A stretch of DNA of 64,000 bases from Gaiellaceae bacterium (GCA_035293125.1 DATDOS010000158.1:8963-72962); one strand, 5' to 3'; numbered from the stretch's first letter, positions 46,380-63,615 are shown. Notes: a model not told the origin generated them from the letters alone. Translations and numbers: made by a program.

Positions 46380-47075
46380 TCAGCCCGGGGGCGCGAGCAT
46401 GTAGCCGACACCGGACCTCGTGACGATGTAGCGGGGGTCAGAAGCGTGCTCCTCGAGCTTCTGCCGGAGCCGCCAGAGAGTCACGCGCAGCATGTGGTAG
46501 TCGCCGCGGCTGGTGCCTCCCCACACCCTCTCGAGCAGCTCGTCCCGAGTGAGGACGACCCCCACGCTCGTCGCGAGGCAAGCCAGGACGCGGAACTCAG
46601 TCGGCGAGAGACGCACCTCGCGTCCACGCACGGTCACCCGCTGCGCGAGCAGGTTGATCTCGAGGTCGCCCACCGTCAGCGCCGACTGACTCGGCGGGGG
46701 CGAGGTGGGATGCGCTCGCCGCAGGACGGCGCCGACGCGCGCGACGAGCTCCTGCGCCGAGAACGGCTTCGTCACGTAGTCGTCGGCTCCAAGGCCGAGT
46801 CCCCTGACCTTCTCTTCGTCGGCTCCCTTCGCGGTGAGGATGATGATCGGCGTCGTCGAGACCTCGCGGATCCGGCGGCAGACCGCGAAGCCGTCGAGGC
46901 CGGGCAGCATCACGTCCAGCACGACGAGGTCCGGCTCGCCCTGGGCGAGAAGCGCCAGCGCATGCTCGCCGGTGGCGGCGCACGTCACGCGGTACTTCCT
47001 TGCCTCGAGATTGAACCGGATGATCTGGAGGTAGCGCGGCTCGTCGTCGACGACGAGGATGTGCTCGCCTGCCAT
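46380..47075 (-). CDS. OmpR-family response regulator
   Basis: ATG 47075 with ILVVDDEP...DLVVLDVMLPGLDG...LTAKG receiver and a winged-helix output (LSPTEFRVL...GVGYML). ATGA overlap with the kinase gene. Confidence 0.92.
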   Translation of the reverse strand: MAGEHILVVDDEPRYLQIIRFNLEARKYRVTCAATGEHALALLAQGEPDLVVLDVMLPGLDGFAVCRRIREVSTTPIIILTAKGADEEKVRGLGLGADDYVTKPFSAQELVARVGAVLRRAHPTSPPPSQSALTVGDLEINLLAQRVTVRGREVRLSPTEFRVLACLATSVGVVLTRDELLERVWGGTSRGDYHMLRVTLWRLRQKLEEHASDPRYIVTRSGVGYMLAPPG

Positions 47076-49540
47076 CAGCGCCCCTCCTCGTGCGGCGACG
47101 CGCCGTCTTCGAAGAGCGGGAGCGAGAAGAGGAACGTGCTGCCGCTCCCGGGCCCGCTCTCGACCCAAAGCCGACCCCCCTGCGCCTCGACGATCGCCCT
47201 GCAGATCGCGAGCCCGAGGCCGGTTCCGCGGACACGGCGGCGCCGCGAGTTCTCGCCGCGGTAGAAGGGCTCGAAGATCGCCTCTCGCTCGTCTTCGGGA
47301 ATCCCGTCTCCACGGTCGGTGACGCTGACGACCGCCTCATCGGTTTCCCGGTGGACGACGAGCTCGACTCGAGTCTCCGGCTCGGAGTAGCGAGCGGCAT
47401 TATCGAGCAGGTTCCGCAGCACCTGCTCGATCCGTAGCGGGTCGACGAGCACCCGCAACTCGCCGTCGTGGTGGAAGGTCGACAGCGCATGCCCCGTCTC
47501 CTCGAGCATCGGTCGGGCTCGCGCCCCGACGTCCTCCACGAGCGCGTCGAGAGCCACGAGCTCGGTCTCGAGGGAGAGGCGACCGCTCTGGAAACGGGAG
47601 GCGTCGAGCAGATCGTCGATCATCTGCTGCAGCTTTGCAGCCTCCTCGTCGATGATCCGGACGAACGTCTGGCGCGTCGCGAGGTCGATCGGAGCGATGT
47701 CGTCGGAGAGCAGGGTCGTTGCGTAGCTGCGGATGAAGCCGAGCGGAGTCCGCAGCTCGTGGGACACGGCCGAGATGAGCTCCGCCTTGACCCGTTGCGC
47801 CTCGCGCTGCGTTTCGACCCGCCGGAGCTCGTCGAACAGACGCGCGTTCTCGATCGCCAGCGCGACCTCGTTTCCGATCGCGTGCAGCATCCGCCGCTCC
47901 CCGGGCGGGAGAGCATCGCCGCCATGCGAGAGGAGAAGGACTCCCAACGTCCGCCCACGGGCCTGGAGCGGAAGGATGGCGAGACTGCGTCCGGCGGGCG
48001 CCCGGCACGGTGGGCGGAATGTCCTGCGGGCGTCCGGGTCGAGGAAGAGGGCGTGCCCGCTCGCGGCCACGACCGCGCAGGGGCAGCGGTCCGCGCCGAC
48101 GTTCTGGTCTCGGCAGGGAAAGCCTGCTGAGTCGCCGCGAAAGATGGGTGGCTCCAGCTTCCCCGATCTCTCGTCCAGTAGCCGTACTGCGCCTGCGTCC
48201 ATATTGGTGTGCTCGAGGGCCACGTCGAGGCAGCGCCGCAACGTCGTTTCAACGTCGCGAAGCTCACTGGCGGCCGTCGCGACGGCCGCGAGGCCGGCGA
48301 GTTGGCGGTTGCGCATGCGGAGCTCGGTCGTCCGCTGCTCCACTTTCGCCTCGAGCTCCTCTCCCCAGCGCGTCACCTTTTCCAGCGAGTCGCGCAGCTG
48401 GGTCCGCATCGTCTCGAGGCTCGTCGCAAGGGCGCCGATCTCGCCGCCTTCCGCGACACGGACCGGCTCGTCGAGGTCTCCAGCCGCCATCCCCCCCGCC
48501 GCATGCGTCAACGTGCGCACCGGCCGTACGAGGAGCCGCGCGCCGACGAGCGTGACGACCCAGAGGAAGGCGAGCGCAAGCGCTCCCGCGAGCAGGAGGG
48601 TATTCCGAAGCCGCGCCACCGGGGCGAAGGTCTCGCGCGTCGATCCGCCCACGGACACGCCCCAAGGCGCGTTGGTCAGAGGCGCGAACGCCATCACGTG
48701 GTGCTCGCCCTCTCGATTCGCAGGCACCTGATGCCACGGCGTGTACGGGACGTCCTCGACGCCCGCCTCCCTCGCGCGGAGCTTTTGAAGGTAGAAGTCG
48801 AGGTGCTCGCCCGGCTTCAGGAACCCGCCGTAGCCGGTGGAGGCGACGATGAGTCCTCCCTCGCCTACCAGCTCCGCGTGACCCGTGTGCCCGACATCCT
48901 TCGCGTGGCTGAGCGGCTTCGAGACATCGGCACCGGCCACGTTCAGGAGTCCCACGAGGAGCGAGCGAACCGTGCCGTCGCGATTGAGGAGCGGTCTCGT
49001 GAGAGCGACGGCCGGCGCGCCCGTCGACGGATCGCGGAAGGGCGGCGAGACAGTGCGCCGCCTCGTGACGATCGCCTGTCTGACGTAGGGAGCGCGCGAG
49101 AGGTCGGCGCCCCGCTGCAGCTTGCCCGGCGGCTGCGAGAGGACGATTCTCCCGCGCGCGTCGAGGAAGTAGACGCCGAGGGAGAGAGTGCCGACGCGGC
49201 CGTACGCGTGGTTCAGCATGTGCACTTCCGCGGAGAGCGAGGGGGCAGCCGGATCGAAGCGGGCGAACCGCGTTGCCTGCTCGAGCTCGTAGAAGCCGCG
49301 CTCGAGCAAGCGATCGATGTCGCGTGCCGCCATCTTGGCGATGACGAGCCGCTCTTCCAGGATGCGGTCCGTGCTGTCCTCGACCGCGCGCAGGGCCAGC
49401 AGCGTGAAGACGGCGAACAGGAGGAGGAAGCCGCCTGTTACGGCGATGACGAGCCGCGGCCAGAGGTTGAGCCGACGCCACGTGGCGAGGAGCTTCACGG
49501 CCTTCAACCTCCTTGGTGCCTGCTGAGGGTGGATTCGCAT
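47075..49540 (-). CDS. Sensor histidine kinase (TM - extracytoplasmic Cache-like - HAMP - GAF - HisKA - HATPase)
   Basis: H-box AELISAVSHELRTPL, N/G boxes LLDNAARYS and GTGLGLAICRAIVEAQGG, and a GAF segment with a CPC motif. The start is uncertain (ATG 49540 or the upstream start at 49633). Confidence 0.88.
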   Translation of the reverse strand: MRIHPQQAPRRLKAVKLLATWRRLNLWPRLVIAVTGGFLLLFAVFTLLALRAVEDSTDRILEERLVIAKMAARDIDRLLERGFYELEQATRFARFDPAAPSLSAEVHMLNHAYGRVGTLSLGVYFLDARGRIVLSQPPGKLQRGADLSRAPYVRQAIVTRRRTVSPPFRDPSTGAPAVALTRPLLNRDGTVRSLLVGLLNVAGADVSKPLSHAKDVGHTGHAELVGEGGLIVASTGYGGFLKPGEHLDFYLQKLRAREAGVEDVPYTPWHQVPANREGEHHVMAFAPLTNAPWGVSVGGSTRETFAPVARLRNTLLLAGALALAFLWVVTLVGARLLVRPVRTLTHAAGGMAAGDLDEPVRVAEGGEIGALATSLETMRTQLRDSLEKVTRWGEELEAKVEQRTTELRMRNRQLAGLAAVATAASELRDVETTLRRCLDVALEHTNMDAGAVRLLDERSGKLEPPIFRGDSAGFPCRDQNVGADRCPCAVVAASGHALFLDPDARRTFRPPCRAPAGRSLAILPLQARGRTLGVLLLSHGGDALPPGERRMLHAIGNEVALAIENARLFDELRRVETQREAQRVKAELISAVSHELRTPLGFIRSYATTLLSDDIAPIDLATRQTFVRIIDEEAAKLQQMIDDLLDASRFQSGRLSLETELVALDALVEDVGARARPMLEETGHALSTFHHDGELRVLVDPLRIEQVLRNLLDNAARYSEPETRVELVVHRETDEAVVSVTDRGDGIPEDEREAIFEPFYRGENSRRRRVRGTGLGLAICRAIVEAQGGRLWVESGPGSGSTFLFSLPLFEDGASPHEEGR

Positions 49541-49958
49541 CGGACCGGAACCCTGTAGGCGGTCAGCGGCCCTGCTCCGACCCCGGGCAGTGTCGCGCGC
49601 CCCTTCGAGCCCGGAATGAGCAACATTGACCACCTTCCTGGTAGGCCGGTGGGCGCCCTCGTAGAGGGCATCCGCCGCACTCGCCCAGCGTGATCCCCTC
49701 CCCGCTCACTGTCAACCCGATCTCGTCGAGGTGAGCGGCACCGTCGTCGACGCCCGCCGGCTTCTCCGGAGGTACAGGCGCCCGAACGCAGCGGAGGAGT
49801 CACATCCCCTACCTGCCGGCGGCGGTCGAGGCAGCGTGGCTACGTCGAGCCACCCACCAAAGAGATGACCCTTCCGCCTGCAGCCGACGGCGGCTGCTCG
49901 GACTCACATGTCGAGGAGTTGAACCCCATACCGCATATGGCGATTCCAGGGCTCTCAG

Positions 49959-50004
49959 CGGGAGCGACGGGACTCGAACCCGCGACCTCCGGCGTGACAG
50001 GCCG
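49959..50004 (-). repeat. tRNA-Asp(GTC) 3'-half fragment, copy 2
   Basis: Identical core CGGGAGCGACGGGACTCGAACCCGCGACCTCCGGCGTGACAGGCCG on the plus strand. There is no 5' tRNA half. Confidence 0.85.
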
Positions 50005-50285
50005 GTACGGGCCCGACCGGTACAGCGGCTGCGACCGGGAGTTGCCGGCTGAAGGAGGCATTTCCTCGCCGAGCGAACCGGCGCTGACCGGCTACGACCC
50101 GCTGCCGCCCGGCCGAGCCTGTGTGGTACGCGTGTGGTCCCTCTAGTTACGAATTAGCAACAGAGCTATCGATGGGCGATCGCAACCCCTTACGTCGCGC
50201 GCAGCCACATCGCTTGAGGCATCCGCTGCTTCGTGCGCAACGGCCACGCACCGATCTCCGATCCACCCCGCGAGCAGGCAAACGC

Positions 50286-50329
50286 GGTTACACGCCTGAA
50301 ACAGTGCTGTAACGCCGGTTCCTTACAAG
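50286..50329 (+). promoter_or_regulatory. Candidate SARP-dependent promoter (a): GGTTACAC-N3-TGAAACAG-N3-TGTAACGC-8 nt-TACAAG
   Basis: 11-bp-phased repeats at 50286/50297/50308 and a hexamer at 50324-50329, 56 nt upstream of the kinase GTG. Confidence 0.5.
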
Positions 50330-50384: not shown

Positions 50385-53300
50385 GTGCAAGTGAGCGACG
50401 ACCCGCGGGTCGGCACCGAGCTCGCCGGCTACCGGATCGAGTCGCTGCTGGGCTGGGGCGGCATGAGCGTCGTCTACCTGGCCGAGGATTTGCGGCTCAA
50501 GCGGAGGGTTGCGCTCAAGCTGCTGGCTGCCAGCCTCGCCGAGGACGAATCGTTCCGTGGCCGCTTCCTGCGCGAGTCGGAGCTGGCCGCGTCTATCGAC
50601 CATCCGAACATCGTCCCGATCTACGAGGCCGGGACGACCGAGGACCTCCTCTTCATAGCCATGCGCTACGTCGAGGGGCGTGACCTGAAAGAGCGCCTCC
50701 AGCGCGGCCGTCTGGACCCGGCGGACGCGATAGGCATCCTCGCACAGGTGGCGAGCGCGCTGGATGCGGCCCACGCGCGCGGTCTCGTGCATCGCGACGT
50801 GAAGCCCTCCAACGTGCTGCTCGACACGGGTGCCCGCCCCGACGGCTCCGACCACGTCTACCTCGCGGACTTCGGCCTCACGACGCGGGTTTCCGAGGAG
50901 GCAGGAATCGGCGACGACGGCCGCCTCATGGGCACCATCGACTACGTCGCACCCGAGCAGATCGCCGGAGAGGAGATCGACGGACGGGCGGACGTGTACT
51001 CGCTCGGCTGCGTGCTCTACGAGTGTCTCGTCGGGCAGCCGCCATTCCGGAGTGATTCGGACCTCGCGGTGGTGTTCGCGCACCTCGAAACCGAGTCGCC
51101 GCCGCCGAGCGCCGGGCGGCCCGAGCTGCCGGCGGCGCTCGACGCCGTGATCGCCAGGGCGCTGGCGAAAGAGCCGGAGCAGCGCTACCCGAGCTGCCGC
51201 GAGTTCGTCCGAGCGGCGCTCGCGGTCGCGGTCGACGAGGCGAGCCGCGTGCTCGTCGACGTCGCCTCTCGCGCCGCCGCCGGCAGAAGTGACCTGGGCG
51301 AGGTCGAGGCCGAGCTGGCCGGGAAGGTGATCGACCTCCAGCTGGTGCGCGAGCAGGCGCGGGTCCTCTCGGGCCCGGACACCCCGACCCGCGTGGCGAC
51401 CGAGGGGGTATGCCCGTTCAAGGGGCTCGCAAGCTTCGAGCCGGTCGACGCCGACTACTTCTTCGGCCGGGAGCGGCTCGTGGCCGAGCTCGTCGCCCGC
51501 CTCGTCGGAGCCGGTTTCCTCGGCATCGTCGGCCCGTCGGGCAGCGGCAAGTCGTCGGTCCTCCGCGCCGGTCTCCTCCCGGCCCTCGCCGGAGGAGTGC
51601 TGCCGGGCAGCGGGGGCTGGCGGCGTCTGCTCCTGCGTCCCGGCGAGCGGCCGCTGGAGGAGCTTCGCCGCGTGCTCGTGTCGGGAGCGAAGGATCCTCT
51701 CGCCGAGGCCCTCGACACGCTGCCCCCGGGCGCGCGCCTTCTCCTCGCCGTCGACCAGCTCGAGGAGCTCCATACCGCCTGCCGCTCCGACGCCGAGCGC
51801 GCCGCATTCGCCGACACCCTTGCCCGCGCGGCTGCTGATCCGGAGGGTCGAGCAGTCGTGGTGGTCGCGCTGCGCGCCGACTTCTACGGGCGCTTCGCCG
51901 CGTACCCGGGGCTCGCCGAGCTGCTGGGCGCGAACCAGGTGCTGGTCGGGCCAATGCAGGCCTCCGAGTTGCGGCGCGCCGTCGAGCTGCCCGCCGGCCG
52001 GGTGGGGCTGCGGGTGGAGCCCGAGCTGGCCGACGCGCTGGTCCACGACGTCGAAGGTGAGCCAGGAGCGCTGCCGTTGCTGTCCACGGCCCTGCTCGAG
52101 CTCTGGCAGAAGAGGGAGGACGACGCGCTCACTTTGGCTGCCTATCGCGAATCCGGCGGCGTCCACGGCGCCGTCGCGCGGCTGGCGGAGGGCACGTACG
52201 CTCGCGTCCCGGACGAGCGCAGGCAGCTCGTACGCGCCGTCATGCTGCGTCTGGTCGGCGAGGACGACGGCGACGCGCCGGTGCGCCGCCGCGCTCCACT
52301 CGGGGAGCTCGACCTGGAGCGCAACGAAGACGTGGCCGACGTGCTCGCGACGCTGGCCGACAGCCGTCTCGTCACCGTGTCGGAAGGGAACGTCGAGGTC
52401 GCCCATGAGGCACTGCTGCGCGAGTGGCCGCGCCTGCGCGACTGGATCGAAGAGGACACCGAAGGGCGCCGGCTTCGCCGTCACATCACTCAGGCGGCGA
52501 CCGAGTGGGATGCGGCAGGGCGCGATCAGGGCGAGCTCTATCGCGGCGCCCGACTCGCCGCCGCCCTCGACTGGACCGCCGATCACGCGCTCGACGTCAA
52601 CGAGCTCGAGCGCGAGTTCGTCACCGAGAGCCGCGAGGCCTCGGAGAAAGAGACCAAACGGGTCCGGCGCACGAATCGCCGCCTCCGAGTCCTGCTCGCC
52701 GGAGTCGTGGTGTTGCTCGTCGCGGCCGTCGCCGGCGGGATCTTCGCGCTCGTCCAGCGCAGCGAAGCCCGAGACGCGGAGGCTGCACAGCTAGTGCAGC
52801 GCCTGGGCGCGCAGGCGCTCGTCGAGGACGACCTCGACCTCTCGCTCCTGCTCGCCCGGCAGGCAGTTGCGATCGACGACTCGCCGCAGACCCGCGGCTA
52901 CCTGCTCGCCGCACTCCGGCGCAGCCCCGCTGCGATCGGGGTCATGCATGGTCCCGCCGGGCGGCACGGCGTGCTCACGGGAGTCACAATCAGTCCCGAC
53001 GGGAAGACGCTGGCGGTGCTCTCCGGCGGCGGCGAGGTTCTGTTCTTAGATGCGCGAACCTACGCGCAGATCGGGGACCCGCTGACGGCGACGAATTCCG
53101 GCGAGTCGAGCCTTTCGTATAGCCCCGACGGGCGAACGCTCGCGGTCGGCGGCGACCACCTCGTTCGCCTCATCAGCGCGCGAACGCGTGCCCAGTTGGC
53201 CGAGACAGCCGTCGAAGGGGTCGCCACGCATCTGGCCTTCACGAAAGACGGGTCGCAGTTGGTCGTCGTTGTCGCCCCAGGCAGCTCCGCAAGCGACCTC

Positions 53301-54884
53301 GGCAGCAGAGGCGACGCGGAGATCACCGTCCGAGACGCCGTCAGGCTGAAGGCGATCGGTCCCTCGATCGAGCCGGACGCCTTCGTCGGCGCGTACGTCG
53401 GCTTCTGGTACGCGTCTCCTCAGTTTGCACCCACACCCGACGGTCGCTCCCTCATCACCGCGTCCGAGGACGGTGAGCTGGCGCGGTGGGATCTCGAGAG
53501 CCGCAAGAAGACCCGGACGTGGAGGATCGAGCCCGGCACCGCGCCCGCGCTCGCCATCAGCCCGGACGGTCTCACCGCGGCGGTCGGCATCAAGCACGGG
53601 GTGCAGCTGGTCGACCTCCGTGCCGGCACCGTGCGAACGGCAACCGCCGATCTCGCCGGGAGCCCGAACTGGGTGCTCTTCAGCCCGGACGGCAAGATGG
53701 TCGTGTCGACGAACCGTGACAAGACGGTGACTCGCTGGGACGTCGAGTCAGCGACCCCCCTCGAGACGCTGCGCGGCCACTCGAACTTCGTTCAGCAGCC
53801 CGTTTCCAGTCCCGACGGAGAGACGCTCTACACCGTGAGTCACGACGGCACTGCCATCGCCTGGGATCTCGCAGGCGACCGCAGGCTCGGGCGGCCTTTC
53901 ACGTTCACGCACGACCGGACGTTCTCCGCCGCCGGCTTTGACGGCCATCCGGGGAGATTCAGCCCGGACGGCCGGCTGATCGCGGTCGGCCTGAAGGAGC
54001 AGGGCGTCGCGCTTTGGGACGCGCGCAAGCTCAGGCCGGTCGGGGGACCGCTTCTCCACACGGGCGGCGAGGTCAAGAATCTCGCCTTCTCGCCAGATGG
54101 ACGAAAGCTTGCTGCAGTGACCGACGGAGGCTCTCTCACACTCTGGGACGTTGATTCGCGATCGCGGCTCCATGGTCCGCTCGGCGCGGGCGAGGCCCTT
54201 CTGCCCGGCGTCGGCTTCAACCCGAACGGGTCGACGCTCGCCACGGCGAGCGTGTTCGGCGTGACGCTCTGGGACGTGGCAACCGGAGCCAGTCTCAGCG
54301 AGTTCGGTAGGAACGCGAGCGACCTCGCCTTCAGCGCTGACGGGGCGACGATCGCGTTCGCCGACCCAAACGGAGGCGGCGCGGAGATCTGGGATGTGGC
54401 CAAGCGCTTGCTGGTCGCCGCCATGTTGGGAGACGAGGACTTCTCCGTCGCCCTCAGCCCCGGCGACCGGTTACTCGCGGTCGGTGGCTTCGGCAGAGTC
54501 GTACGCGTCTGGGACGTCCGCACCCGGAAGCTCCTCCACGAGCTCGACCAGGGTGGCAACGGAGCGTTCACCCTCGAGTTCACTCCGGATGGCCGGACTC
54601 TCGCCATCTCCGGATTCGAGCAGGCCGCGTCTCTTTGGGATGTGGCAACCGGAACGCAGATCGGCCCGCCGCTCACCGCCGGAGACCGCAGGACGATGAT
54701 CGACCTCTCGGCCGACGGACGGCAGATGTTGGAGACCCACGGCAACGGCAAAGGGGCAGTCTGGGACGTCGACCCCGAATCCTGGAAGCGCCGGGCTTGT
54801 GTCCTCGCCAACCGCACGCTGACCCGCGAGGAGTGGGACGAGTTCCTCCCAGGGCGGCCCTACGAGCCGGCTTGCGCGAGCTGA
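50385..54884 (+). CDS. Ser/Thr protein kinase - STAND P-loop NTPase - TM helix - WD40 beta-propeller protein (1499 aa)
   Basis: Kinase motifs VALKLL, HRDVKPSNVLL and DFG. P-loop context FFGRERLVAELVARLV...GIVGPSGSGKSSVLRAGLLPAL. TM helix LRVLLAGVVVLLVAAVAGGIFALV. Many SPDG...LWD WD40-like repeats follow. Confidence 0.9.
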   Translation: MQVSDDPRVGTELAGYRIESLLGWGGMSVVYLAEDLRLKRRVALKLLAASLAEDESFRGRFLRESELAASIDHPNIVPIYEAGTTEDLLFIAMRYVEGRDLKERLQRGRLDPADAIGILAQVASALDAAHARGLVHRDVKPSNVLLDTGARPDGSDHVYLADFGLTTRVSEEAGIGDDGRLMGTIDYVAPEQIAGEEIDGRADVYSLGCVLYECLVGQPPFRSDSDLAVVFAHLETESPPPSAGRPELPAALDAVIARALAKEPEQRYPSCREFVRAALAVAVDEASRVLVDVASRAAAGRSDLGEVEAELAGKVIDLQLVREQARVLSGPDTPTRVATEGVCPFKGLASFEPVDADYFFGRERLVAELVARLVGAGFLGIVGPSGSGKSSVLRAGLLPALAGGVLPGSGGWRRLLLRPGERPLEELRRVLVSGAKDPLAEALDTLPPGARLLLAVDQLEELHTACRSDAERAAFADTLARAAADPEGRAVVVVALRADFYGRFAAYPGLAELLGANQVLVGPMQASELRRAVELPAGRVGLRVEPELADALVHDVEGEPGALPLLSTALLELWQKREDDALTLAAYRESGGVHGAVARLAEGTYARVPDERRQLVRAVMLRLVGEDDGDAPVRRRAPLGELDLERNEDVADVLATLADSRLVTVSEGNVEVAHEALLREWPRLRDWIEEDTEGRRLRRHITQAATEWDAAGRDQGELYRGARLAAALDWTADHALDVNELEREFVTESREASEKETKRVRRTNRRLRVLLAGVVVLLVAAVAGGIFALVQRSEARDAEAAQLVQRLGAQALVEDDLDLSLLLARQAVAIDDSPQTRGYLLAALRRSPAAIGVMHGPAGRHGVLTGVTISPDGKTLAVLSGGGEVLFLDARTYAQIGDPLTATNSGESSLSYSPDGRTLAVGGDHLVRLISARTRAQLAETAVEGVATHLAFTKDGSQLVVVVAPGSSASDLGSRGDAEITVRDAVRLKAIGPSIEPDAFVGAYVGFWYASPQFAPTPDGRSLITASEDGELARWDLESRKKTRTWRIEPGTAPALAISPDGLTAAVGIKHGVQLVDLRAGTVRTATADLAGSPNWVLFSPDGKMVVSTNRDKTVTRWDVESATPLETLRGHSNFVQQPVSSPDGETLYTVSHDGTAIAWDLAGDRRLGRPFTFTHDRTFSAAGFDGHPGRFSPDGRLIAVGLKEQGVALWDARKLRPVGGPLLHTGGEVKNLAFSPDGRKLAAVTDGGSLTLWDVDSRSRLHGPLGAGEALLPGVGFNPNGSTLATASVFGVTLWDVATGASLSEFGRNASDLAFSADGATIAFADPNGGGAEIWDVAKRLLVAAMLGDEDFSVALSPGDRLLAVGGFGRVVRVWDVRTRKLLHELDQGGNGAFTLEFTPDGRTLAISGFEQAASLWDVATGTQIGPPLTAGDRRTMIDLSADGRQMLETHGNGKGAVWDVDPESWKRRACVLANRTLTREEWDEFLPGRPYEPACAS

Positions 54885-54891
54885 GCTCGAC

Positions 54892-56493
54892 TCAAGGTCG
54901 GATCGACCAGGTGAAGCGCGTCAGGGCGGCCGGAGGAGCGAGGCCGCCGGGGCGCAGACCCCGCCGCACGAGCAGCGTTGGTGGGGCGGCGTCTCTGGCG
55001 AGTCTGAGGCGAGCCGGGCCGAGGCCCTCGTGGTGCCACCTCGTCGACAGCCCGACGACGAGCAGTCCCGCGTAGCGGCTCGCCTCCAGCATGCCCTCCT
55101 CGCCGGGCGAGATCAGCAGCGGCTCGGCCGAGATGCCCAGGACGCGCTGAACTGCGAGCGCGCCGTGCGAGAGCAGGCGGCTCGCATCGCGCTTGCCTCG
55201 CTCCGGCACCGCTGCGACACCCGCGAGCCGGAGCGGCGCGCCACTTGCCCGCGCGAACCATGCGCCGAGCTCGACGGCCGCCCAGTCGTGGTCGGCTCCT
55301 CCGAACGGGACGAGCACCGGGCCTTGGGAGGTCGCCTCCCGGGGAACGAGCAGCGCGACGTCGCATGGCGCCTCCTCGAGGAGGGCGGTGAGCTGCTCGT
55401 CGGGAGCGCCCTCGGCCAGAAGCTCCTCGGGAGCGTCGGTAAGCAGGAAATCGACGTCGAGCTCGGTGGCGAACCGAGCCAGCTCCGCACCCGGCGCCGT
55501 CGACGTGAACGAGGCAGCACGAGCCACGACACCGCGCGCTTCGAGTGCGGACCGGCGCTCTTCGAGCCAGGCTGACGTGGGCCGGAGCTCGGCTGCGTCC
55601 GACAGGACCCTGGTCAGGATCATGACGCGAGGCGGATGTCGCACGAGCGGCTCGGCCACCGTGAGCAGCGCGTCGATGCGCGTCTCCTGGGCGATGGCAA
55701 CGAGAATCGACCGCTCCGCGACCTCCCGGACACCTGCAGTTGCCGTCGCTTCGCCATCCAGCGACGGGTCCTGTCGAAGGATCGCGCGCTCCAGCTCCTG
55801 GAGCGCCGGACTCGGATCGATCCCGAGCCCGTCGACGAGCGCGCGGCGCGCGTCCTGGTACGCCTCCAGGGCTTCCGCCTGCCGGCCCGACCGGTACAGC
55901 GCGGTCATCAGATACCCCCGCAGGCGCTCGCGGAGCGGGTGCTCCGCGACGAGTGCCTCGAGCTCTCCGACCAGCTCATCGTGGCGTGCGAGCGCGAGAT
56001 CGGCGTCGATCCGGAGCTCGACTGCTGCCAGCCTGATTTCCTCGAGCCGGGCGATGGCGGCCTGGGCGAAGCTTTCGTAGGCGAAGTCCGCGAGCGCCGG
56101 GCCTCTCCACAGCGACAGCGCGTCGCGGAGCCGCCCCGACGCGTCCGCTGCCAGGCTGCGAGCCAGCAGCCCCCTCCCTTCGTCCACCAGGCGCTCGAAG
56201 CGGTGGAGGTCGAGCTCGTCGGGCTCGACGCGGACGACATAGCCCGGGGATCTGGTCGTCAGTACGTCTGCGGGAAGCGCCTTGCGAAGTCGCGAGACGT
56301 TGACCCGCAGCGCGGCGGCGGCGCCCTCGGGCGAGTCCTCACCCCAGAGCTCGTCGATCAGCCGGTCAGCAGGAACGACCTCGTTGAGGTGAAGGAGGAA
56401 CAGGGCGAGAAGCGCACGCGGCTTGGGCCCACCCAGTGACACCTCGTGGTCCCCGTCCCACACCTCGAGCGGGCCCAGGATCCGGAACTCCAT
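54892..56493 (-). CDS. SARP-family transcriptional activator (OmpR-type wHTH + BTAD) with C-terminal USP-like tandem domain
   Basis: ATG 56493, 5 nt after GGAGG. MEFRILGPLEVWDGDHEVSLGGPKPRALLALFLL..., BTAD LDLHRFERLV...ALSLWRGPALADF...RLAAVELRIDADLALARHDELVGELEALV, then alpha/beta USP-like repeats. Confidence 0.88.
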   Translation of the reverse strand: MEFRILGPLEVWDGDHEVSLGGPKPRALLALFLLHLNEVVPADRLIDELWGEDSPEGAAAALRVNVSRLRKALPADVLTTRSPGYVVRVEPDELDLHRFERLVDEGRGLLARSLAADASGRLRDALSLWRGPALADFAYESFAQAAIARLEEIRLAAVELRIDADLALARHDELVGELEALVAEHPLRERLRGYLMTALYRSGRQAEALEAYQDARRALVDGLGIDPSPALQELERAILRQDPSLDGEATATAGVREVAERSILVAIAQETRIDALLTVAEPLVRHPPRVMILTRVLSDAAELRPTSAWLEERRSALEARGVVARAASFTSTAPGAELARFATELDVDFLLTDAPEELLAEGAPDEQLTALLEEAPCDVALLVPREATSQGPVLVPFGGADHDWAAVELGAWFARASGAPLRLAGVAAVPERGKRDASRLLSHGALAVQRVLGISAEPLLISPGEEGMLEASRYAGLLVVGLSTRWHHEGLGPARLRLARDAAPPTLLVRRGLRPGGLAPPAALTRFTWSIRP

Positions 56494-56524
56494 CTCGCCT
56501 CCTGGCGCGAACGCTAACACCGAC

Positions 56525-56568
56525 TGTTGCGCGCCTGAAACGGGGCTGAAACGAGTCAGGGGGAGGAT
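56525..56568 (+). promoter_or_regulatory. Candidate SARP-dependent promoter (b): TGTTGCGC-N3-TGAAACGG-N3-TGAAACGA-8 nt-GAGGAT
   Basis: Repeats at 56525/56536/56547. It lies in the divergent gap between the SARP gene and secreted paralog 1. Confidence 0.6.
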
Positions 56569-56605: not shown

Positions 56606-57040
56606 ATGAAGACTCACTACGTCGTGCTCGTCGCGCTCATTGCGGCAGTCACGCTGGCCTCCGTGGCGGCGGCAACACCCGGCGCCGTCAAGCAGCGGGT
56701 CGCGATCGCGTCAAAGCTGTACCCGGAGCGCACATTCGTATTCACCCCGGTCACAGCCGGACCGCTCAAGCGCGACTCCGGCACCGTAGGTTTCGATGCC
56801 GGTACCTTCACGTTCAAGGGAAAGCGGGGCACTCTCACGATTCGCGAGTTGTACGAAAACTGGGTGAACTGCGGGAGCGAGGAACACAAGGGCGTCATTC
56901 CTGCGGTCGACATCGGCCCCTGGAAGGTCGTGCGCGGGACTGGCCAGTACAAGGGCGTCACCGGAGGCGGGGAGAGTGCGCAAGCGGGGCTCGGCAACCC
57001 GTGGTACGCGCGCCAAGAGGGGTACCTCGCGTCTCCGTAG
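56606..57040 (+). CDS. Small secreted protein, paralog 1 (144 aa)
   Basis: AAAGGAG RBS and signal peptide MKTHYVVLVALIAAVTLASVAAA. Shared family motifs KGKRGTLTIRE and WKVVRGTGQYKGVTGGG...GYL. Confidence 0.75.
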   Translation: MKTHYVVLVALIAAVTLASVAAATPGAVKQRVAIASKLYPERTFVFTPVTAGPLKRDSGTVGFDAGTFTFKGKRGTLTIRELYENWVNCGSEEHKGVIPAVDIGPWKVVRGTGQYKGVTGGGESAQAGLGNPWYARQEGYLASP

Positions 57041-57088: not shown

Positions 57089-57108
57089 GGCCCACGGCCG
57101 CCGTCACC

Positions 57109-57152
57109 TGTTGCGCGACTGAAACGGATCTGAAACGGGCCGGCTCGATAGT
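57109..57152 (+). promoter_or_regulatory. Candidate SARP-dependent promoter (c): TGTTGCGC-N3-TGAAACGG-N3-TGAAACGG-8 nt-GATAGT
   Basis: Repeats at 57109/57120/57131, 37 nt upstream of ATG 57189. Confidence 0.6.
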
Positions 57153-57188: not shown

Positions 57189-58253
57189 ATGGGGACGATG
57201 CCCAGGAATCGAGTTCAACGCCTCGGCGCGATCGGCCTCATCTCGGCAGTCGGGCTCGTAGCGACAGCCGGTGCCGCATCGGCACCGGCCACGGGGTCTC
57301 AGCTCGCTGCGAACTCTGCGCGAGCGAGCTCGCAGATCGCCTTCATCAGCGAGCCTCCGGCCGGCGGCTACTGCGGCCTTGTCTACGTCATGAACGCCGA
57401 CGGGAGCAGGCGGCACAGGCTGGCCGATGGCCCGGCGGATGAGTGCGCGCAGGAGTGGGGTCCAGCCTGGGCGCCCGACGGGCGGACGATCGCCTTCGTC
57501 GGCAATTCCAAGATCTACGTCACGAACGCCAACGGGAGCGGGCAGCGGCGGCTGACGCACACCGCTGCCTCGGAAGGTTCTCCGGCCTGGTCGCCCGACG
57601 GGCGGAGGATCGCCTTCACGAGATACCGCCAGAGCACTGGCGAGATCTACATCGTGAACGCCGACGGCACTGGGCAGCGGAGGCTGACACGCAACGGGGC
57701 GGGCAACTTCGCTCCGGTCTGGGGATACTTCGCTCCGGTCTGGTCGCCCGACGGGCAGAGGATCGCCTTCGTCAGCCGACGTGACGGCAACTTGGAGGTC
57801 TACGTCATGAACGCCGACGGGAGCAGGGAGCGGAGGCTGACACACAACGCTGTGCGCGACGAATACCCACTCTGGTCGCCCGACGGGCGAAGGATCGCCT
57901 ACGTCAACAATTTGCGACAGGTCTACGTCATGAACGCCGATGGCAGCGGGCAGCGGAGCCTGACAGGCAACGCTGCGCGCAGCGTCGCTCCTGCCTGGTC
58001 TCCCGACGGACAGAGGATCGCCTTCGTCAACGACGGCGTCAACGTCATCAACGCCGACGGGAGCGGGCAGCGGAGGCTGTCGCAAGACGGCGCGCAACCT
58101 TCCTGGTCGCCCGATGGCCAGAAGATCGCGTTCGCGAAGAACTCCGACATCTACGTCATGAACGCCGACGGAAGCGGACAGCGGAACTTGACGCGCAGCA
58201 ACCGTCGCGAAAGCTCGCCTCTCTGGTCGCCCGGACGGAGCAGCGCAGGATGA
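57189..58253 (+). CDS. Secreted PD40/TolB-like beta-propeller repeat protein
   Basis: 354 aa with a signal peptide. Seven or more repeats of the form IYVMNADGSGQRRLT...P.WSPDG.RIAF. Confidence 0.85.
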   Translation: MGTMPRNRVQRLGAIGLISAVGLVATAGAASAPATGSQLAANSARASSQIAFISEPPAGGYCGLVYVMNADGSRRHRLADGPADECAQEWGPAWAPDGRTIAFVGNSKIYVTNANGSGQRRLTHTAASEGSPAWSPDGRRIAFTRYRQSTGEIYIVNADGTGQRRLTRNGAGNFAPVWGYFAPVWSPDGQRIAFVSRRDGNLEVYVMNADGSRERRLTHNAVRDEYPLWSPDGRRIAYVNNLRQVYVMNADGSGQRSLTGNAARSVAPAWSPDGQRIAFVNDGVNVINADGSGQRRLSQDGAQPSWSPDGQKIAFAKNSDIYVMNADGSGQRNLTRSNRRESSPLWSPGRSSAG

Positions 58254-59191
58254 GCACGCCGAGGAAGATCGGCGTGCTCGCCGTGGCAGCGGCGATCAGC
58301 CTTGCGGCGCTGGCCGTCGTCCTGATGGCACGCCCCGAAACTGCGACAACTCGAGGTGCGAACGCTCCGCTCGAGCCGAGAACCGCGGTGACGAAGCCCG
58401 GCGCGCCGAAGTTCGACTACGTGTTCGACCTGAACACCGGCGTCAAGACACCGCTGCCCAGCGCCATCATCCGATCGGCGGCCAAGCTGGGGCAGTATGC
58501 GGCCTCACCCGACGGATCCCTGCTCGCCTACGTCGGGGACGACAACGACGGAACCCCTCAGATCTTCGTTGCACGCGTCGACGGCAGCGGGATCCGACAG
58601 TTGACCCACGATCCGGTGCGTGCCGCGTCGCCCGCTTGGTCGCCGGATGGGACCAAGATCGCGTACGGGGGATTCGGGAGTCTCTTCGTGCTCGATGTCG
58701 CCACGGGCGAATCCACACCGACTGCTGGCGCAGGCGGACCCTGGGCTCAGCCCCAGTTCACGCCGGACGGCTCGTCACTCCTGTACACCGACCCTGGCCC
58801 GTCTGACTATGGCTCGGTACTCCGGACCGTCCCGATCGAAGGCGGGAAGAGCACGGTCCTGATCGGCCCGGACGAGGGAATGGGCCACGCGGGGAACGGC
58901 TCGCTGTCACCTGACGGCTCGCTCGTGACCATGATGGGCAACGAGATCAACGGTCCCGGGGCGATCCGCTTTGTCGCCAACGTCGACGGCACGGAGCTGC
59001 GATCCATCCCCGAAGGCAGCTCGAATCCGGCGGGGACATGGTCTCCCGACGGAGACCGGATCGTCTGCTCGGACTACGCACGGAGGAACATCCTCGTCGT
59101 CGACATCGCGACGGGCAGCGCTTCGCGCGTCGCCAAAGGCCGTGCGGCGATCTGGCTGGGTGCGCACGCGTTGCTCGTCGACGTCGCCTGA
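58250..59191 (+). CDS. Membrane-anchored PD40-like beta-propeller protein
   Basis: 313 aa, ATGA overlap with the upstream gene. N-terminal TM IGVLAVAAAISLAALAVVLM and repeats SPDGSLLAY and WSPDGTKIAY. Confidence 0.8.
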   Translation: MSTPRKIGVLAVAAAISLAALAVVLMARPETATTRGANAPLEPRTAVTKPGAPKFDYVFDLNTGVKTPLPSAIIRSAAKLGQYAASPDGSLLAYVGDDNDGTPQIFVARVDGSGIRQLTHDPVRAASPAWSPDGTKIAYGGFGSLFVLDVATGESTPTAGAGGPWAQPQFTPDGSSLLYTDPGPSDYGSVLRTVPIEGGKSTVLIGPDEGMGHAGNGSLSPDGSLVTMMGNEINGPGAIRFVANVDGTELRSIPEGSSNPAGTWSPDGDRIVCSDYARRNILVVDIATGSASRVAKGRAAIWLGAHALLVDVA

Positions 59192-59237
59192 GGATCGCGT
59201 CGAGCGCTCCCGTCGGGGCAGAACGGACGCCGTCAGC

Positions 59238-59281
59238 TGTAGCTCGACTGAAACGGACCTGAAACGGCTCGGGTCGATCAT
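59238..59281 (+). promoter_or_regulatory. Candidate SARP-dependent promoter (d): TGTAGCTC-N3-TGAAACGG-N3-TGAAACGG-8 nt-GATCAT
   Basis: Repeats at 59238/59249/59260, 37 nt upstream of ATG 59318. Confidence 0.6.
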
Positions 59282-59317: not shown

Positions 59318-59764
59318 ATGAACGTCCGATACACCGTGCTCGTCGCCGTCGCGGCGGCGGTCGCACTGGCGTCTGTCGCCACTGCGGCACCCGACGCCGG
59401 CAGACAGCAGATCACGATCATGTCGCGGCTGTATCCGGGTGGGACATTCGTGTTCACACCGCTGGTACCCGGAGCGCTGAAGCGTGACTCCGGCAAGGTC
59501 GGCGTCGAGGACTCCGGCTACGACACCAGCGACTTCACGTTCAGGGGGAAGCGCGGCACCCTCACGCTTCGCGAGCAGACCGAGTGGGTGGACATCTGGA
59601 ACGAGGAAGTGAACGGCGTCACTCCAGGGGTGTCCATCGGCCCATGGAAGGTCGTGCGGGGGACCGGCCAGTACGCCAAGGTCACCGGAAGCGGCCGGAG
59701 TGTCCAGGTCGGGCTCGGCAACATCTGGTACGCGCGCCACGAGGGGTACCTCAAGGTCCCGTAG
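59318..59764 (+). CDS. Small secreted protein, paralog 2 (148 aa)
   Basis: GAGGAGG RBS and signal peptide. Motifs RGKRGTLTLRE and WKVVRGTGQYAKVTGSG...GYL. Confidence 0.75.
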   Translation: MNVRYTVLVAVAAAVALASVATAAPDAGRQQITIMSRLYPGGTFVFTPLVPGALKRDSGKVGVEDSGYDTSDFTFRGKRGTLTLREQTEWVDIWNEEVNGVTPGVSIGPWKVVRGTGQYAKVTGSGRSVQVGLGNIWYARHEGYLKVP

Positions 59765-59817
59765 CGCCCTGCGACGCGACGGGCGGCGCGCACTCGTGTG
59801 CCGCTCGTCTCCGCACT

Positions 59818-59861
59818 TGTTGCGCAGGTGAAACGGACCTGAAACGGGCCGGGTCGACCAT
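59818..59861 (+). promoter_or_regulatory. Candidate SARP-dependent promoter (e): TGTTGCGC-N3-TGAAACGG-N3-TGAAACGG-8 nt-GACCAT
   Basis: Repeats at 59818/59829/59840, 40 nt upstream of ATG 59901. Confidence 0.6.
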
Positions 59862-59900: not shown

Positions 59901-60371
59901 ATGAAAGCTCGATATGCCGTGCTCGTCGCGATCGTCGCGGCGGTCACGCTCACGTCCGTTGCGGCGGCCGGCCCTGACGCGGCGAAGCAGCGCGTGGCGA
60001 TCGTGATGAATGACTTGCCCGACGGCAAGTTCTTGCTCAGCCCATTCCAGCTCGGAGCGGTCAAGAGCGACTCGGGCAGGACCAGCGTCGCCCTGAGCGG
60101 CCCGAACGTCGTGATGCGCGAGGGGCAGACGATCGAGGTCTGGCGCAATACCTGGACGCTCACGGGAAAGCGGGGGAGCCTCACGATTCGAGAGCGCGTC
60201 GAGTGGATCGACGCCGGGCAGCCCTTTATCGGCACCGGCACCTGGAAGCTCGTGCGGGGAACGGGCCAGTACGCCGGGATCGCGGGTAGCGGGCGGAGTG
60301 CCTCTGCGGGGCTCAATCGTGCGAATGGGGCCTGGTTCGTGCGCTACGAAGGCTTCCTCATCCTGCCGTAG
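59901..60371 (+). CDS. Small secreted protein, paralog 3 (156 aa)
   Basis: CAGGAGG RBS and signal peptide. Motifs TGKRGSLTIRE and WKLVRGTGQYAGIAGSG...GFL. Confidence 0.75.
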   Translation: MKARYAVLVAIVAAVTLTSVAAAGPDAAKQRVAIVMNDLPDGKFLLSPFQLGAVKSDSGRTSVALSGPNVVMREGQTIEVWRNTWTLTGKRGSLTIRERVEWIDAGQPFIGTGTWKLVRGTGQYAGIAGSGRSASAGLNRANGAWFVRYEGFLILP

Positions 60372-60386
60372 CGCACTGCCCGAGAC

Positions 60387-60414
60387 GGGCGGCGCGTCCC
60401 CGGGCGCGCCGCCC
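60387..60414 (+). terminator. GC-rich hairpin after paralog 3
   Basis: GGGCGGCGCG ... CGCGCCGCCC, a perfect 10-bp stem. Confidence 0.55.
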
Positions 60415-60496
60415 ACCACCGGTGGAGTTGACGGGGTAAGGGGACGCGCGTCAGCGTCGAGGGATCTATCCACGTCCCCTCCGAAAGGAGCGACGC

Positions 60497-61405
60497 ATGA
60501 AGCACCAATCGAAGGTCGGAGTCTCCGCCGCAGTCGTGCTCGTCGCGCTGCTGGCCACGACGGTCGCATCTGCGATGAACTTCTCGCCCTGGGCGCCCGC
60601 ACAGGCCGTGGCCGAACTGAACACTGCGTCGAGTGACGGCTGCCCGATCCAGTCACCCGACGGTCTGAGCTTCTACCTGGCCTCGAACCGCACGGGCACA
60701 CTCGGCGGTCTCGACATCTGGGTCGCGACACGGGAGGACGCCGACGATCCTTGGTCGACGCCCGTGAATCTCGGGGCGCCGATCAACTCGGCGGCTGACG
60801 ACTTCTGCCCGACGCCAATCCGCGGGGGCGGTCTCTTCTTCGCGAGCAGGCGGGAGCCCGCAAGCTGTGGCACGAATGACAGCGACCTCTACTTCACCCG
60901 CCTCAACCCGGCCCACGGGTGGAGCGAGCCGCTGCACCTCGCGTGCGCGGTCGATGGAGGCCCGAACAGCACCCTCGACGAGATGGGCCCCTCGTACGTG
61001 GAAGTCGATGGACGGGGGCTCCTCTTCTTCTCGAGCGGCCCCGACATCTACATGAGCGAGCGGGGTTCGGGCTGGAGCTTCGGCCCGGCGCAAGCCGTCA
61101 CGGAGCTCAACAGCGCGTCGAGCGACATTCAGCCGAACGTCCGCAAGGACGGGCGCGAGGTCGTCTTCGCCTCGAACCGCGTGGACACGCTGGGCGGCCA
61201 GGACATCTGGATCGCTACACGGGAGGACGCCGACGATCCGTTCTCGACGCCCGTGAACCTCGGCTCGGCTGTCAACACCACGGCCAACAATGAGACACGC
61301 CCCTCGTTCTCCCGGGACGCCAAGATGCTCTACTTCGGTCGCGCGCCGACCGCCGGAGGACCGGGCGACATCTACATGACGACGCGGGAGAAGCTCGCAG
61401 GCTGA
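60497..61405 (+). CDS. Secreted PD40/TolB-like repeat protein
   Basis: 302 aa with AAAGGAG RBS and a signal peptide. The repeated module ELN(T/S)ASSD..P..S.DG...(F/Y).ASNR...LGG.DIW(V/I)ATREDADDP(W/F)STPVNLG occurs twice. Confidence 0.8.
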   Translation: MKHQSKVGVSAAVVLVALLATTVASAMNFSPWAPAQAVAELNTASSDGCPIQSPDGLSFYLASNRTGTLGGLDIWVATREDADDPWSTPVNLGAPINSAADDFCPTPIRGGGLFFASRREPASCGTNDSDLYFTRLNPAHGWSEPLHLACAVDGGPNSTLDEMGPSYVEVDGRGLLFFSSGPDIYMSERGSGWSFGPAQAVTELNSASSDIQPNVRKDGREVVFASNRVDTLGGQDIWIATREDADDPFSTPVNLGSAVNTTANNETRPSFSRDAKMLYFGRAPTAGGPGDIYMTTREKLAG

Positions 61406-62472: not shown

Positions 62473-63615
62473 TCAGCCGGTCGGCGTTGACTCGACCCGG
62501 CGGAGGTCGTAGTTCCTGCCGATCTCCATCCACGCCTCGCCATCGATCTCGGCCACCGGCCCCGTCTGTCCGTCGAGGGAGATCTGCCGATGCTCTACCA
62601 CCATCGGATCGTTCGCCCGGAGAACCTCGAACCGCCCCGCCTCAAGCAGCACGCCGAAGGCTCCGTCCATAGGACCCAGGTACCAGATCTCTCCCGGAGA
62701 GACGGTGTCGAGAACTTCTCCATCGACGATCGAGGTCACCTGGTAGCGGGTCGCGACATAGGCCACATCACCGTCGAACGCGACACTCAGCACCTCGTGG
62801 CCGATGTCATCGACCGGGATCACCGTCACCTCGAGGGTGTCGGCGTCGATCATCGCCACCCCGCCCTCGCCGAGAGGAACCCAGATCGCGCCGGCCCCTG
62901 CCTCGGGAGCATCGAGGCCGCTGTCACGTTGGTGGTGGACGGGTGGGATCTCGATGCTGGTCGTCGACAGATCCGGATCGATCCGGACCAATCGCCCCCG
63001 AACCAGTGCTCCAGGGCCGGATGGCTCTACGGGCGCGACCCACACCGATCCGAACGCCCACGGTCCGAACTCCACCGGTCCGGACACCCCCAACGCATGA
63101 CCGTCCTCGTCCTTGATCGTGACGTGGTCGAGTATCCGTCCATCGGAGGCGTTGATCCGTGACACCGTCCAGTCTTCACGAGCAACCCAGGGATCACCGT
63201 CCACGACCACGACGTCGGTCGACTTTCCATCCAGTTCGGTTCGCCACAGCTCGACGCCGGCGTCGTCGAAGGCCGCCAGCACCGCGGTCTCCGTCTGGAT
63301 GAGGTCGTACTCACCGTGTTCGGGCACCTCGTCAATCTGGCCGGGCAGCACGTAGAGGTGACCCCCGTCCTTGGCAGCTCTTCCGACGAATCCGACCAGG
63401 CGGTCACCGAACTGGATGAGGTCGGGAGTGACGGTGATCTCCTCCCCCTGCGGCGGCGCGGTCCGTTGGTCAACCGTCGAACCAGGATCGCGACTGTTGT
63501 TGATCAGCGCGACTCCCCCGACGACAAGCAGTGTGCACGCGGCGGCCGCGGCGGCGAACCAAAGCGTGGAGCGTCGTCCACGCTTCGTGCCGTGAGGTTG
63601 CTGCGTGCCGGCGAT
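62473..63615 (-). CDS. Hypothetical protein with predicted N-terminal membrane anchor (start uncertain; first canonical start is GTG 63351)
   Basis: Track ORF 62473..63351. The same frame stays open to a TAA at 63624-63622 and encodes RRSTLWFAAAAAACTLLVVGGVALINN upstream of GTG 63351. Only ATC (63615) or ACG codons are available there. Confidence 0.55.
   Translation of the reverse strand: MAGTQQPHGTKRGRRSTLWFAAAAAACTLLVVGGVALINNSRDPGSTVDQRTAPPQGEEITVTPDLIQFGDRLVGFVGRAAKDGGHLYVLPGQIDEVPEHGEYDLIQTETAVLAAFDDAGVELWRTELDGKSTDVVVVDGDPWVAREDWTVSRINASDGRILDHVTIKDEDGHALGVSGPVEFGPWAFGSVWVAPVEPSGPGALVRGRLVRIDPDLSTTSIEIPPVHHQRDSGLDAPEAGAGAIWVPLGEGGVAMIDADTLEVTVIPVDDIGHEVLSVAFDGDVAYVATRYQVTSIVDGEVLDTVSPGEIWYLGPMDGAFGVLLEAGRFEVLRANDPMVVEHRQISLDGQTGPVAEIDGEAWMEIGRNYDLRRVESTPTG

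Follow-up and report, generated by a model that had tools for sequence, protein, structure and literature searches.

In a 64,000-nucleotide stretch of DNA from a Gaiellaceae bacterium (GCA_035293125.1 DATDOS010000158.1:8963-72962; "the window" below, with a G+C content of about 70%), two convergent genes raise the question of whether, and how, their products work together. One, at 50385..54884 on the plus strand, encodes a 1499-amino acid (aa) protein that begins with a Hanks-type Ser/Thr kinase domain. The other, on the minus strand, encodes a transcriptional regulator of the SARP family that carries a tandem USP module. We give an even chance to the reading that they form a locus-specific circuit working from the outside in, from a receptor kinase to the SARP and from the SARP to five promoters. 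The neighbourhood of the USP module and a kinase, the fusions of this module to Na+/H+ exchangers, and the predicted docking are new here; the architecture of the kinase protein had already been catalogued.

The tandem USP module and its neighbouring kinase

Both open reading frames (ORFs) were confirmed, that of the regulator at 54892–56520. Orthologous SARPs are 533 aa long and start at the ATG at 56493, the end that the original prediction had given to the pair; the gene therefore occupies 54892..56493. In its head (aa 1–248; 55750..56493, minus strand), Pfam placed an OmpR-type winged helix (Trans_reg_C, residues 31–95 in ORF numbering; 46.2 bits, cut-off 26.2) followed by a BTAD domain (103–248; 164.3 bits, cut-off 22.1). 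This is the domain order of the SARP family, as had been proposed, and the fold agrees with it: Foldseek matched the head to AfsR (8k60 and 8hvr; 48% identity, E 1e-21 to 5e-19) and to EmbR (2ff4; E 1e-17), a top structural match.

The remainder of the protein had been read as about 280 aa of USP-like repeats. The Usp family (PF00582) scored 17 bits there, below the Pfam gathering score of 24, and a search of the module against PDB chains by sequence returned no match at E ≤ 10, so a fold search was needed. An AlphaFold2 (AF2) model made from 23 homologues (mean predicted local distance difference test, pLDDT, 86.5) has alpha/beta domains at residues 262–383 and 393–510. Foldseek matched this region to the tandem USP TTHA0350 (3ab8; E 2e-10, TMt 0.68–0.76), as well as to UspE, Rv2623, and the USP-like C-terminal domains of KCC/NKCC transporters, which have this fold of two alpha/beta domains. 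In a language-model atlas, 27 of the 30 nearest clusters were Usp. Model, fold search, and atlas agree on two consecutive USP folds (aa 262–510; 54964..55710, minus strand), and the earlier reading stands.

This module is a distinct subfamily, with a score below the Pfam cut-off, invariant motifs of its own (PFGGxxHDW, RDASRLL..VQ, and GLSxRWxxEGxG), and a tail. The tail, RRGLRPGGLAP..LTRFTWS (aa 511–533; 54895..54963, minus strand), is conserved in the alignment and disordered in the AF2 model (pLDDT <50 at 520–533); its Thr residues are candidate phospho-acceptors. The USP ATP-binding motif G-x2-G-x9-G-[ST], which marks only the ATP-binding subclass, is absent from the 533-aa SARP (regular expression search).

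To find where else the module occurs, the SARP served as query in 40 relatives, and only the USP module as query in 400 genomes from the phylum, eight of which had it. We fetched 21 loci, chosen solely by their match to the SARP or the USP query. A Hanks kinase lay at most 1.6 kb from the USP module in 19 of them, a count from related genomes that is not a statistical test. The neighbourhood of kinase and USP module is conserved. The window's own genome has only three Hanks kinase matches and one nSTAND1 in 2.96 Mb, which makes chance adjacency unlikely there.

The loci fall into three contexts. In the window and in L013, L014, and L026, the SARP-USP gene stands beside a gene for a kinase-nSTAND1-transmembrane (TM)-WD40 protein. 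In L015–L022, L024, L025, and L029, its neighbour is a receptor kinase made of a kinase domain, a TM helix, and propeller-like repeats. In L027, L028, L030, L032, and L033, the fusion partner of the module is a Na+/H+ exchanger, not a SARP, and one or two kinases flank it. SARP-fused and exchanger-fused modules have in common PFGGxxHDW, RDASRLL..VQ, GLSxRWRxEGxG, and the tail RRGxRPGxLAP..TRFxWS, and relatives fused to Na_H_Exchanger pass the Pfam Usp cut-off (e.g., 45.3 bits).

The exchanger proteins are 865–1126 aa long, with the tandem-USP module and tail at the C-terminus (L027, L028, and L030–L033, from other Actinomycetota). One or two Hanks kinase genes abut the exchanger in five of the six loci, all except L031. 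The C-terminal domains of CCC transporters are regulated by phosphorylation, and a USP-bearing exchanger next to kinases echoes that arrangement.

Locus L026 (G223:C1) comes from the same phylum and another family, with the whole locus at 78%–86% protein identity, which suggests lateral transfer or an odd taxonomic placement. About 9 kb from the locus lies another nSTAND1-WD40 gene (L026 17344–19695). In L013, L014, L020, and L024, kinase or SARP genes are in pieces in different frames, through assembly indels or real decay.

The literature searched describes neither a SARP with a tandem USP nor a kinase-USP gene pair; "USP" is absent from supplement file 1 of Kaur et al. (2021), whose other supplements, file 13 excluded, were checked for "nSTAND1" only.

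The complex was predicted by folding the kinase domain (aa 1–300, alignment A3) with the USP module (aa 256–533, alignment A1). The pair scored a median of 0.68, and none of the three controls scored above 0.00. The score mark had been reached by 116 of 157 solved complexes versus 2 of 215 mismatched pairs, counts that hold roughly here because our own alignments lie outside that calibration. At least 53% of contacts were common to the runs, with a partner pLDDT of at least 81. In the predicted complex, the kinase C-lobe docks on the USP module: the activation segment (175–194) and residues 223–235, which we take to be the alphaG helix, face USP residues 399–408, 439–453, and 514–515. Eight of the 20 USP contact residues are invariant, versus 42 of 278 in the whole module (A1). 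We know of no solved kinase-USP complex that the model could remember. The prediction supports binding of the kinase to the USP module.

The kinase protein and the nSTAND1 family

Orthologues of the kinase protein are 1490–1525 aa long. Its Pkinase domain (aa 16–268; 50430..51188, plus strand, as are all features of this protein) scored 155.1 bits (E 3e-45, cut-off 31.7 in Pfam) and has the complete set of Hanks motifs: the G-loop at 23, VALK at 42, HRDxKxxN at 136, DFG at 162, and APE at 189. The nSTAND1 NTPase module follows (PF20703, aa 344–715; 51414..52529), at 409.7 bits against a cut-off of 27.1 and over model positions 1–378 of 379, with Walker A GPSGSGKS at 383 and Walker B LLAVDQ at 453. 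A TM core of 22 uncharged residues (aa 769–790; 52689..52754) is preceded by the Arg-rich stretch RRTNRRLR. The rest is a WD40 propeller region (aa 851–1499; 52935..54881), where WD40 (PF00400) reached 100.3 bits (cut-off 27) and several propeller models matched across about 850–1470. The protein thus has the nSTAND1+TM+BetaPropeller layout, with the TM helix directly after nSTAND1 and propeller repeats beyond it. The original prediction had set out the same order of parts, and each was recovered: the Hanks kinase (given as about aa 15–275) with intact catalytic motifs, the P-loop STAND module, one TM helix (about 775–797, found at 769–790), and extracytoplasmic WD40 repeats (about 700 aa, found as about 650).

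The kinase and the NTPase need ATP and so belong in the cytoplasm; with a single span, the WD40 region then falls outside. The WD40 region is accordingly predicted to be extracytoplasmic, an N-in/C-out orientation by the positive-inside rule. To see whether relatives share the helix, we searched aa 300–900 against 1.84 billion cluster representatives. This retrieved 20,762 proteins at E ≤ 1e-30 and 52,805 at E ≤ 0.001, the latter a rough family size only, since the query region includes the start of the WD40 repeats; in the literature we found no member of this nSTAND1-TM-propeller family with a tested function. After nSTAND1, a hydrophobic 19-mer (Kyte-Doolittle mean ≥1.9) was present in 144 of the 150 best representatives, and the six without one are 416–865 aa long. 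Lys plus Arg was higher in the N-side than in the C-side flank in all 139 helices scored (mean 6.3 versus 2.9). Ten representatives were left out of this count because weak domain hits had moved the end of nSTAND1 beyond the helix; in five of these, the 19-mer scan finds a helix. The TM helix is conserved, with a positive-inside flank bias.

The two sides of the membrane differ in their rate of change. Across 96 full-length orthologues, mean identity to the window's protein was 91% for the kinase domain and 91% for the nSTAND1 module (the latter biased upward, as the search region overlapped the module), and 69% and 71% for the two WD40 halves. Column entropy in the WD40 ectodomain exceeded that in the cytoplasmic parts by a factor of two to four, with peaks near aa 851–1000 and 1251–1350. 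Judged by identity, the ectodomain evolves about three times faster, which fits either an exposed sensor for a variable external ligand or weaker constraint.

Thirty of the 150 representatives, hand-picked so as to include kinase-bearing ones, were scanned with Pfam for the domain at their head. Eleven had a SARP, six a Pkinase, two a LuxR HTH, one a nucleotide cyclase, and ten none of these. The SARP heads are BTAD domains, most of them with Trans_reg_C and often with an extra AAA_16/nSTAND5 ATPase. Heads are interchangeable on the nSTAND1-TM-WD40 body, and in this sample SARP heads are at least as frequent as kinase heads.

The impression that this architecture had not been described found no support. 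Figure 2-source data 1 of Kaur et al. (2021, eLife) lists "nSTAND1+TM" 461 times and "kinase+nSTAND1" 42 times, and holds Pkinase+nSTAND1+TM+BetaPropeller rows such as NDJ62327.1, NLF76559.1, and RMF76640.1. It also holds single-chain SARP+Pkinase+nSTAND1(+TM)+BetaPropeller fusions, with the SARP written as wHTH-4stranded+TPRs. The chassis is therefore the same, with both kinase and SARP-kinase forms. These rows are source data for conflict systems: those displayed for "kinase+nSTAND1" have no SARP neighbour, "USP" does not occur in the file, and the parts of the main text considered here give no regulon or function for nSTAND1+TM+BetaPropeller proteins and mention the kinase architecture only in passing among STAND-FGS conflict systems.

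Likewise, membrane Ser/Thr kinases of Planctomycetota combine a cytoplasmic Pkinase, a single TM helix, and periplasmic WD40 arrays; the portion of that work used here mentions neither a STAND NTPase between the kinase domain and the membrane nor a SARP as partner (PMC11032199). In Actinobacteria, an extracellular WD40 propeller that senses epibionts is reported, in the part of a 2026 preprint available to us, to signal via Thr phosphorylation (PMC13622651), which makes external WD40 sensing plausible in monoderms.

SARP boxes and the genes behind them

SARP promoters have direct heptad repeats with an 11-bp period next to the −10 element. The motif CTGAAAC-N4-CTGAAAC, with up to two mismatches, matched six times in the window, always on the plus strand, against 0.08 matches expected; none of 100 shuffled sequences reached six. 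With up to one mismatch on both strands of the 2.96-Mb assembly, only five sites were found, all at this locus and upstream of plus-strand genes. The genome thus holds a private five-site motif at one locus. Each site has a third heptad one 11-bp period further upstream; downstream, a −10-like hexamer follows after 10 bp, and a start codon with a ribosome-binding site 52–71 bp beyond. The triple box can be written CTGTTGC/CTGAAAC/CTGAAAC with an 11-bp period, and the five promoters fit the pattern of SARP targets as putative sites.

The box of the kinase gene, CGGTTAC-N4-CTGAAAC-N4-CTGTAAC (50285..50313, plus strand), has its motif match at 50296, ends 71 nt before the kinase start, and is followed by the hexamer TACAAG (50324..50329), 10 bp past the last heptad. 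The kinase gene does bear the repeat array of the putative SARP targets, as had been claimed. All four orthologous loci (the window, L013, L014, and L026) retain the box upstream of the kinase. Paralogous SARP-USP loci have other triple heptads of the same period (CTGAGSC in L015–L017, pointing at the SARP gene, and CGGTAGC in L018), as would be expected of a box that evolves together with its regulator. Searches for the CTGAAAC motif in paralogous and Na+/H+ exchanger loci gave no match, and the scanned regions of L019, L022, L025, and L029 have no clear repeats.

The other four boxes, all on the plus strand, have the hexamers GAGGAT, GATAGT, GATCAT, and GACCAT at the same offset. A box of exactly this form (CTGTTGC-N4-CTGAAAC-N4-CTGAAAC, 56524..56552) precedes sec1 (56606..57040), which encodes a 144-aa secreted small beta-barrel protein paralogous to sec2 and sec3. 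This box lies inside the 112 bp that separate sec1 from the SARP gene and that must also hold the SARP's own promoter, and autoregulation of the SARP is therefore possible. The box at 57108..57136 stands before two overlapping genes for PD40 (TolB-like) propellers (57189..59191), one of 354 aa with a signal peptide and one of 313 aa with a membrane anchor. Next come CTGTAGC-N4-CTGAAAC-N4-CTGAAAC (59237..59265) before sec2 (59318..59764; 148-aa secreted beta-barrel paralogue) and TTGTTGC-N4-GTGAAAC-N4-CTGAAAC (59817..59845) before sec3 (156 aa). Behind sec3 lies the gene for a third secreted PD40 protein (302 aa; both at 59901..61405); no box separates the two, and they may form an operon.

The small secreted proteins have 1032 homologues, and of the 120 listed none belongs to a Pfam family. 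They model as eight-stranded beta-barrels, without a Foldseek match at E ≤ 0.001. The nearest structure by VIA-align is DUF3224 (Z 11.2), so that sec3 could be called DUF3224-like; membrane beta-barrels score nearly as high, and only "eight-stranded beta-barrel" is a safe description.

Directly upstream of the kinase gene, a two-component pair lies at 46380–49633 (minus strand), where overlapping ORFs encode an 852-aa kinase (dCache-HAMP-GAF-HisKA-HATPase) and a 262-aa regulator of the OmpR type. In the 750-bp gap that follows, there is a tRNA-like remnant (49965–50024, minus strand; anticodon loop GUC), which Rfam scored at 27.4 bits over model positions 6–65 (gathering score 29). ARAGORN found no tRNA in the window. 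The remnant may mark a former integration site or be what is left of a tRNA after decay. A 292-aa ORF at 62473–63351 (minus strand) has a weak PQQ_2/BamB-like propeller match (E 7.7e-4), in a neighbourhood already rich in propellers.

Known systems, the proposed circuit, and its alternatives

The pair had been presented as a version of AfsK/AfsR of Streptomyces with shuffled domains. There is a likeness: a Ser/Thr kinase with a propeller is paired with a SARP whose head is close to that of AfsR, and the heptads of the window, with their 11-bp period near the −10 element, follow the SARP promoter pattern. AfsK, however, is not known to be a TM protein with an ectodomain, and AfsR carries its own ATPase and TPRs, whereas here the NTPase is nSTAND1 and is on the kinase. 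Scored against the NCBI models, the SARP reached 224.8 of the 1430 bits required for AfsR (NF053617), through residues 8–271 only, its C-terminus being the tandem USP, and the kinase protein 100.7 of 1300 bits for AfsK (NF053615), through the kinase domain only. Both lie far below the cut-offs, and the nSTAND1-TM-WD40 body bears SARP heads as readily as kinase heads, so we do not retain the idea of a shuffled AfsK/AfsR.

Judged by the likeness of its parts, the closer analogue is PknH/EmbR of Mycobacterium tuberculosis. The genes pknH and embR are adjacent. From what is available to us on that pair, it consists of a Hanks kinase that is a membrane receptor with its sensor outside the cell and a SARP (wHTH and BTAD) with a kinase-coupling C-terminal domain, which fits the window better than AfsK/AfsR does. 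EmbR is phosphorylated only if its FHA domain is present, and it binds promoters more strongly once phosphorylated, in the portion of the study considered here (PMC4601284). EmbR couples through FHA, whereas the SARP of the window has the tandem USP in its place and no FHA match in Pfam. PknH has neither a STAND NTPase nor a WD40 ectodomain; the kinase of the window has both.

The circuit that we propose would run as follows. The 1499-aa protein would be a type-II membrane receptor, with kinase and nSTAND1 in the cytoplasm and two WD40 propellers outside, sensing the envelope or the surroundings. Clustering driven by a ligand would switch the STAND module, which would oligomerise and activate the kinase. 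With its C-lobe docked on the SARP's second USP domain, the kinase would phosphorylate this neighbour, the most likely site being the conserved, disordered ..LTRFTWS tail. The SARP would then bind the triple heptads that replace the −35 region at the five promoters, and these would drive the secreted beta-barrel genes sec1, sec2, and sec3, the three genes for PD40 propellers that are secreted or anchored, and the kinase gene itself, which would close a feedback loop. We infer the binding (from the model), the phosphotransfer, the sign of regulation, and the ligand. A loop from kinase to SARP and back to the kinase gene was part of the original prediction, and it has gained from the box kept in four of four loci, from the neighbourhood in 19 of 21, and from a docking prediction that passes its controls. 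The single-chain fusions of SARP, kinase, and nSTAND1 also count for kinase-SARP coupling (Kaur et al., 2021).

Several points weigh against this circuit. The boxes are followed by weak −10 elements, and that of the kinase gene contains one mismatch as well as a degenerate third heptad. The 21 loci are not independent samples, and in two of them no kinase was found: L023 stops 560 bp beyond the SARP gene, and L031 shows no kinase up to about 9 kb away. The score of the complex is a model's confidence, and the topology is called from hydropathy and flank charge. USP domains of other proteins bind nucleotides, so that a ligand could be an input here too. The published framework, in the part considered here, treats nSTAND1 proteins as conflict systems (Kaur et al., 2021).

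Other explanations were weighed. A small ligand such as a nucleotide, bound to the USP module, could rule the SARP, with the kinase being just one of its target genes and acting on other substrates; the closest structure, TTHA0350, was solved with ATP, and a box upstream of the kinase gene shows transcriptional control only. We find this unlikely, as the module lacks the USP ATP motif, the docking prediction passes its controls, and USP modules beside kinases on Na+/H+ exchangers are hard to explain via SARP targets. That same predicted docking, which covers the substrate-docking region of the kinase, would also suit a reversed direction, in which the SARP-USP regulates the kinase or acts as a pseudosubstrate and is not switched by phosphorylation. 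EmbR2 sets a precedent, since it competes at PknH without being phosphorylated, according to the portion of the study considered (PMC4601284). A Thr-bearing disordered tail that adjoins interface residues 514–515, and a DNA-binding head with a private regulon, which argues for an output role, make the reversal very unlikely.

The remaining alternatives concern the receptor. It could be an NLR-like conflict or defence sensor of phage or epibionts, with the kinase as effector and the SARP regulon remodelling the cell surface defensively. In the text considered, nSTAND1 is defined within counter-invader systems, with kinases among the N-terminal effectors (Kaur et al., 2021); the fast-evolving ectodomain (69%–71% versus 91% identity in the 96 orthologues) and the actinobacterial WD40 epibiont sensor with Thr phosphorylation, as far as the preprint was available (PMC13622651), point the same way. 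The gene is, however, single-copy with a highly conserved kinase and NTPase, the heads of its relatives are mostly signalling outputs (SARP, LuxR, cyclase, kinase), and the window ORFs scanned with Pfam include no diversity-generating retroelement (DGR), effector-associated domain (EAD), caspase, or TIR partner. We rate a defence role as quite unlikely; it bears on the signal that is sensed and could hold together with the mechanism proposed here. It is highly improbable that the hydrophobic stretch is not a span and that the whole protein is a classical soluble, cytoplasmic STAND with a WD40 sensor. Some catalogued rows do read Pkinase+nSTAND1+BetaPropeller with no TM (Kaur et al., 2021), and our call draws on hydropathy and flank charge; against this stand the 22-residue uncharged core, its retention in 144 of 150 representatives, the positive-inside bias in 139 of 139, and the 461 entries annotated "nSTAND1+TM".

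The proposed circuit from receptor kinase to SARP would be a compact one: one receptor kinase in a genome with three Hanks kinases, one regulator, a five-site motif, and defined outputs. More tentatively, and with some doubt, we suggest that the tandem-USP subfamily marked by PFGGxxHDW, RDASRLL..VQ, and the ..TRFxWS tail may be a portable receiver module for Hanks kinases, carried by SARPs and Na+/H+ antiporters with the kinase next door, and that the nSTAND1-TM-propeller family may consist of transmembrane NLR-like receptors that feed kinase, SARP, LuxR, and cyclase outputs, and not of cytosolic immune sensors. If this were true, the module would be the Ser/Thr-kinase counterpart of the two-component receiver domain, and bacterial Ser/Thr kinases could be matched to their substrates from genome sequence.

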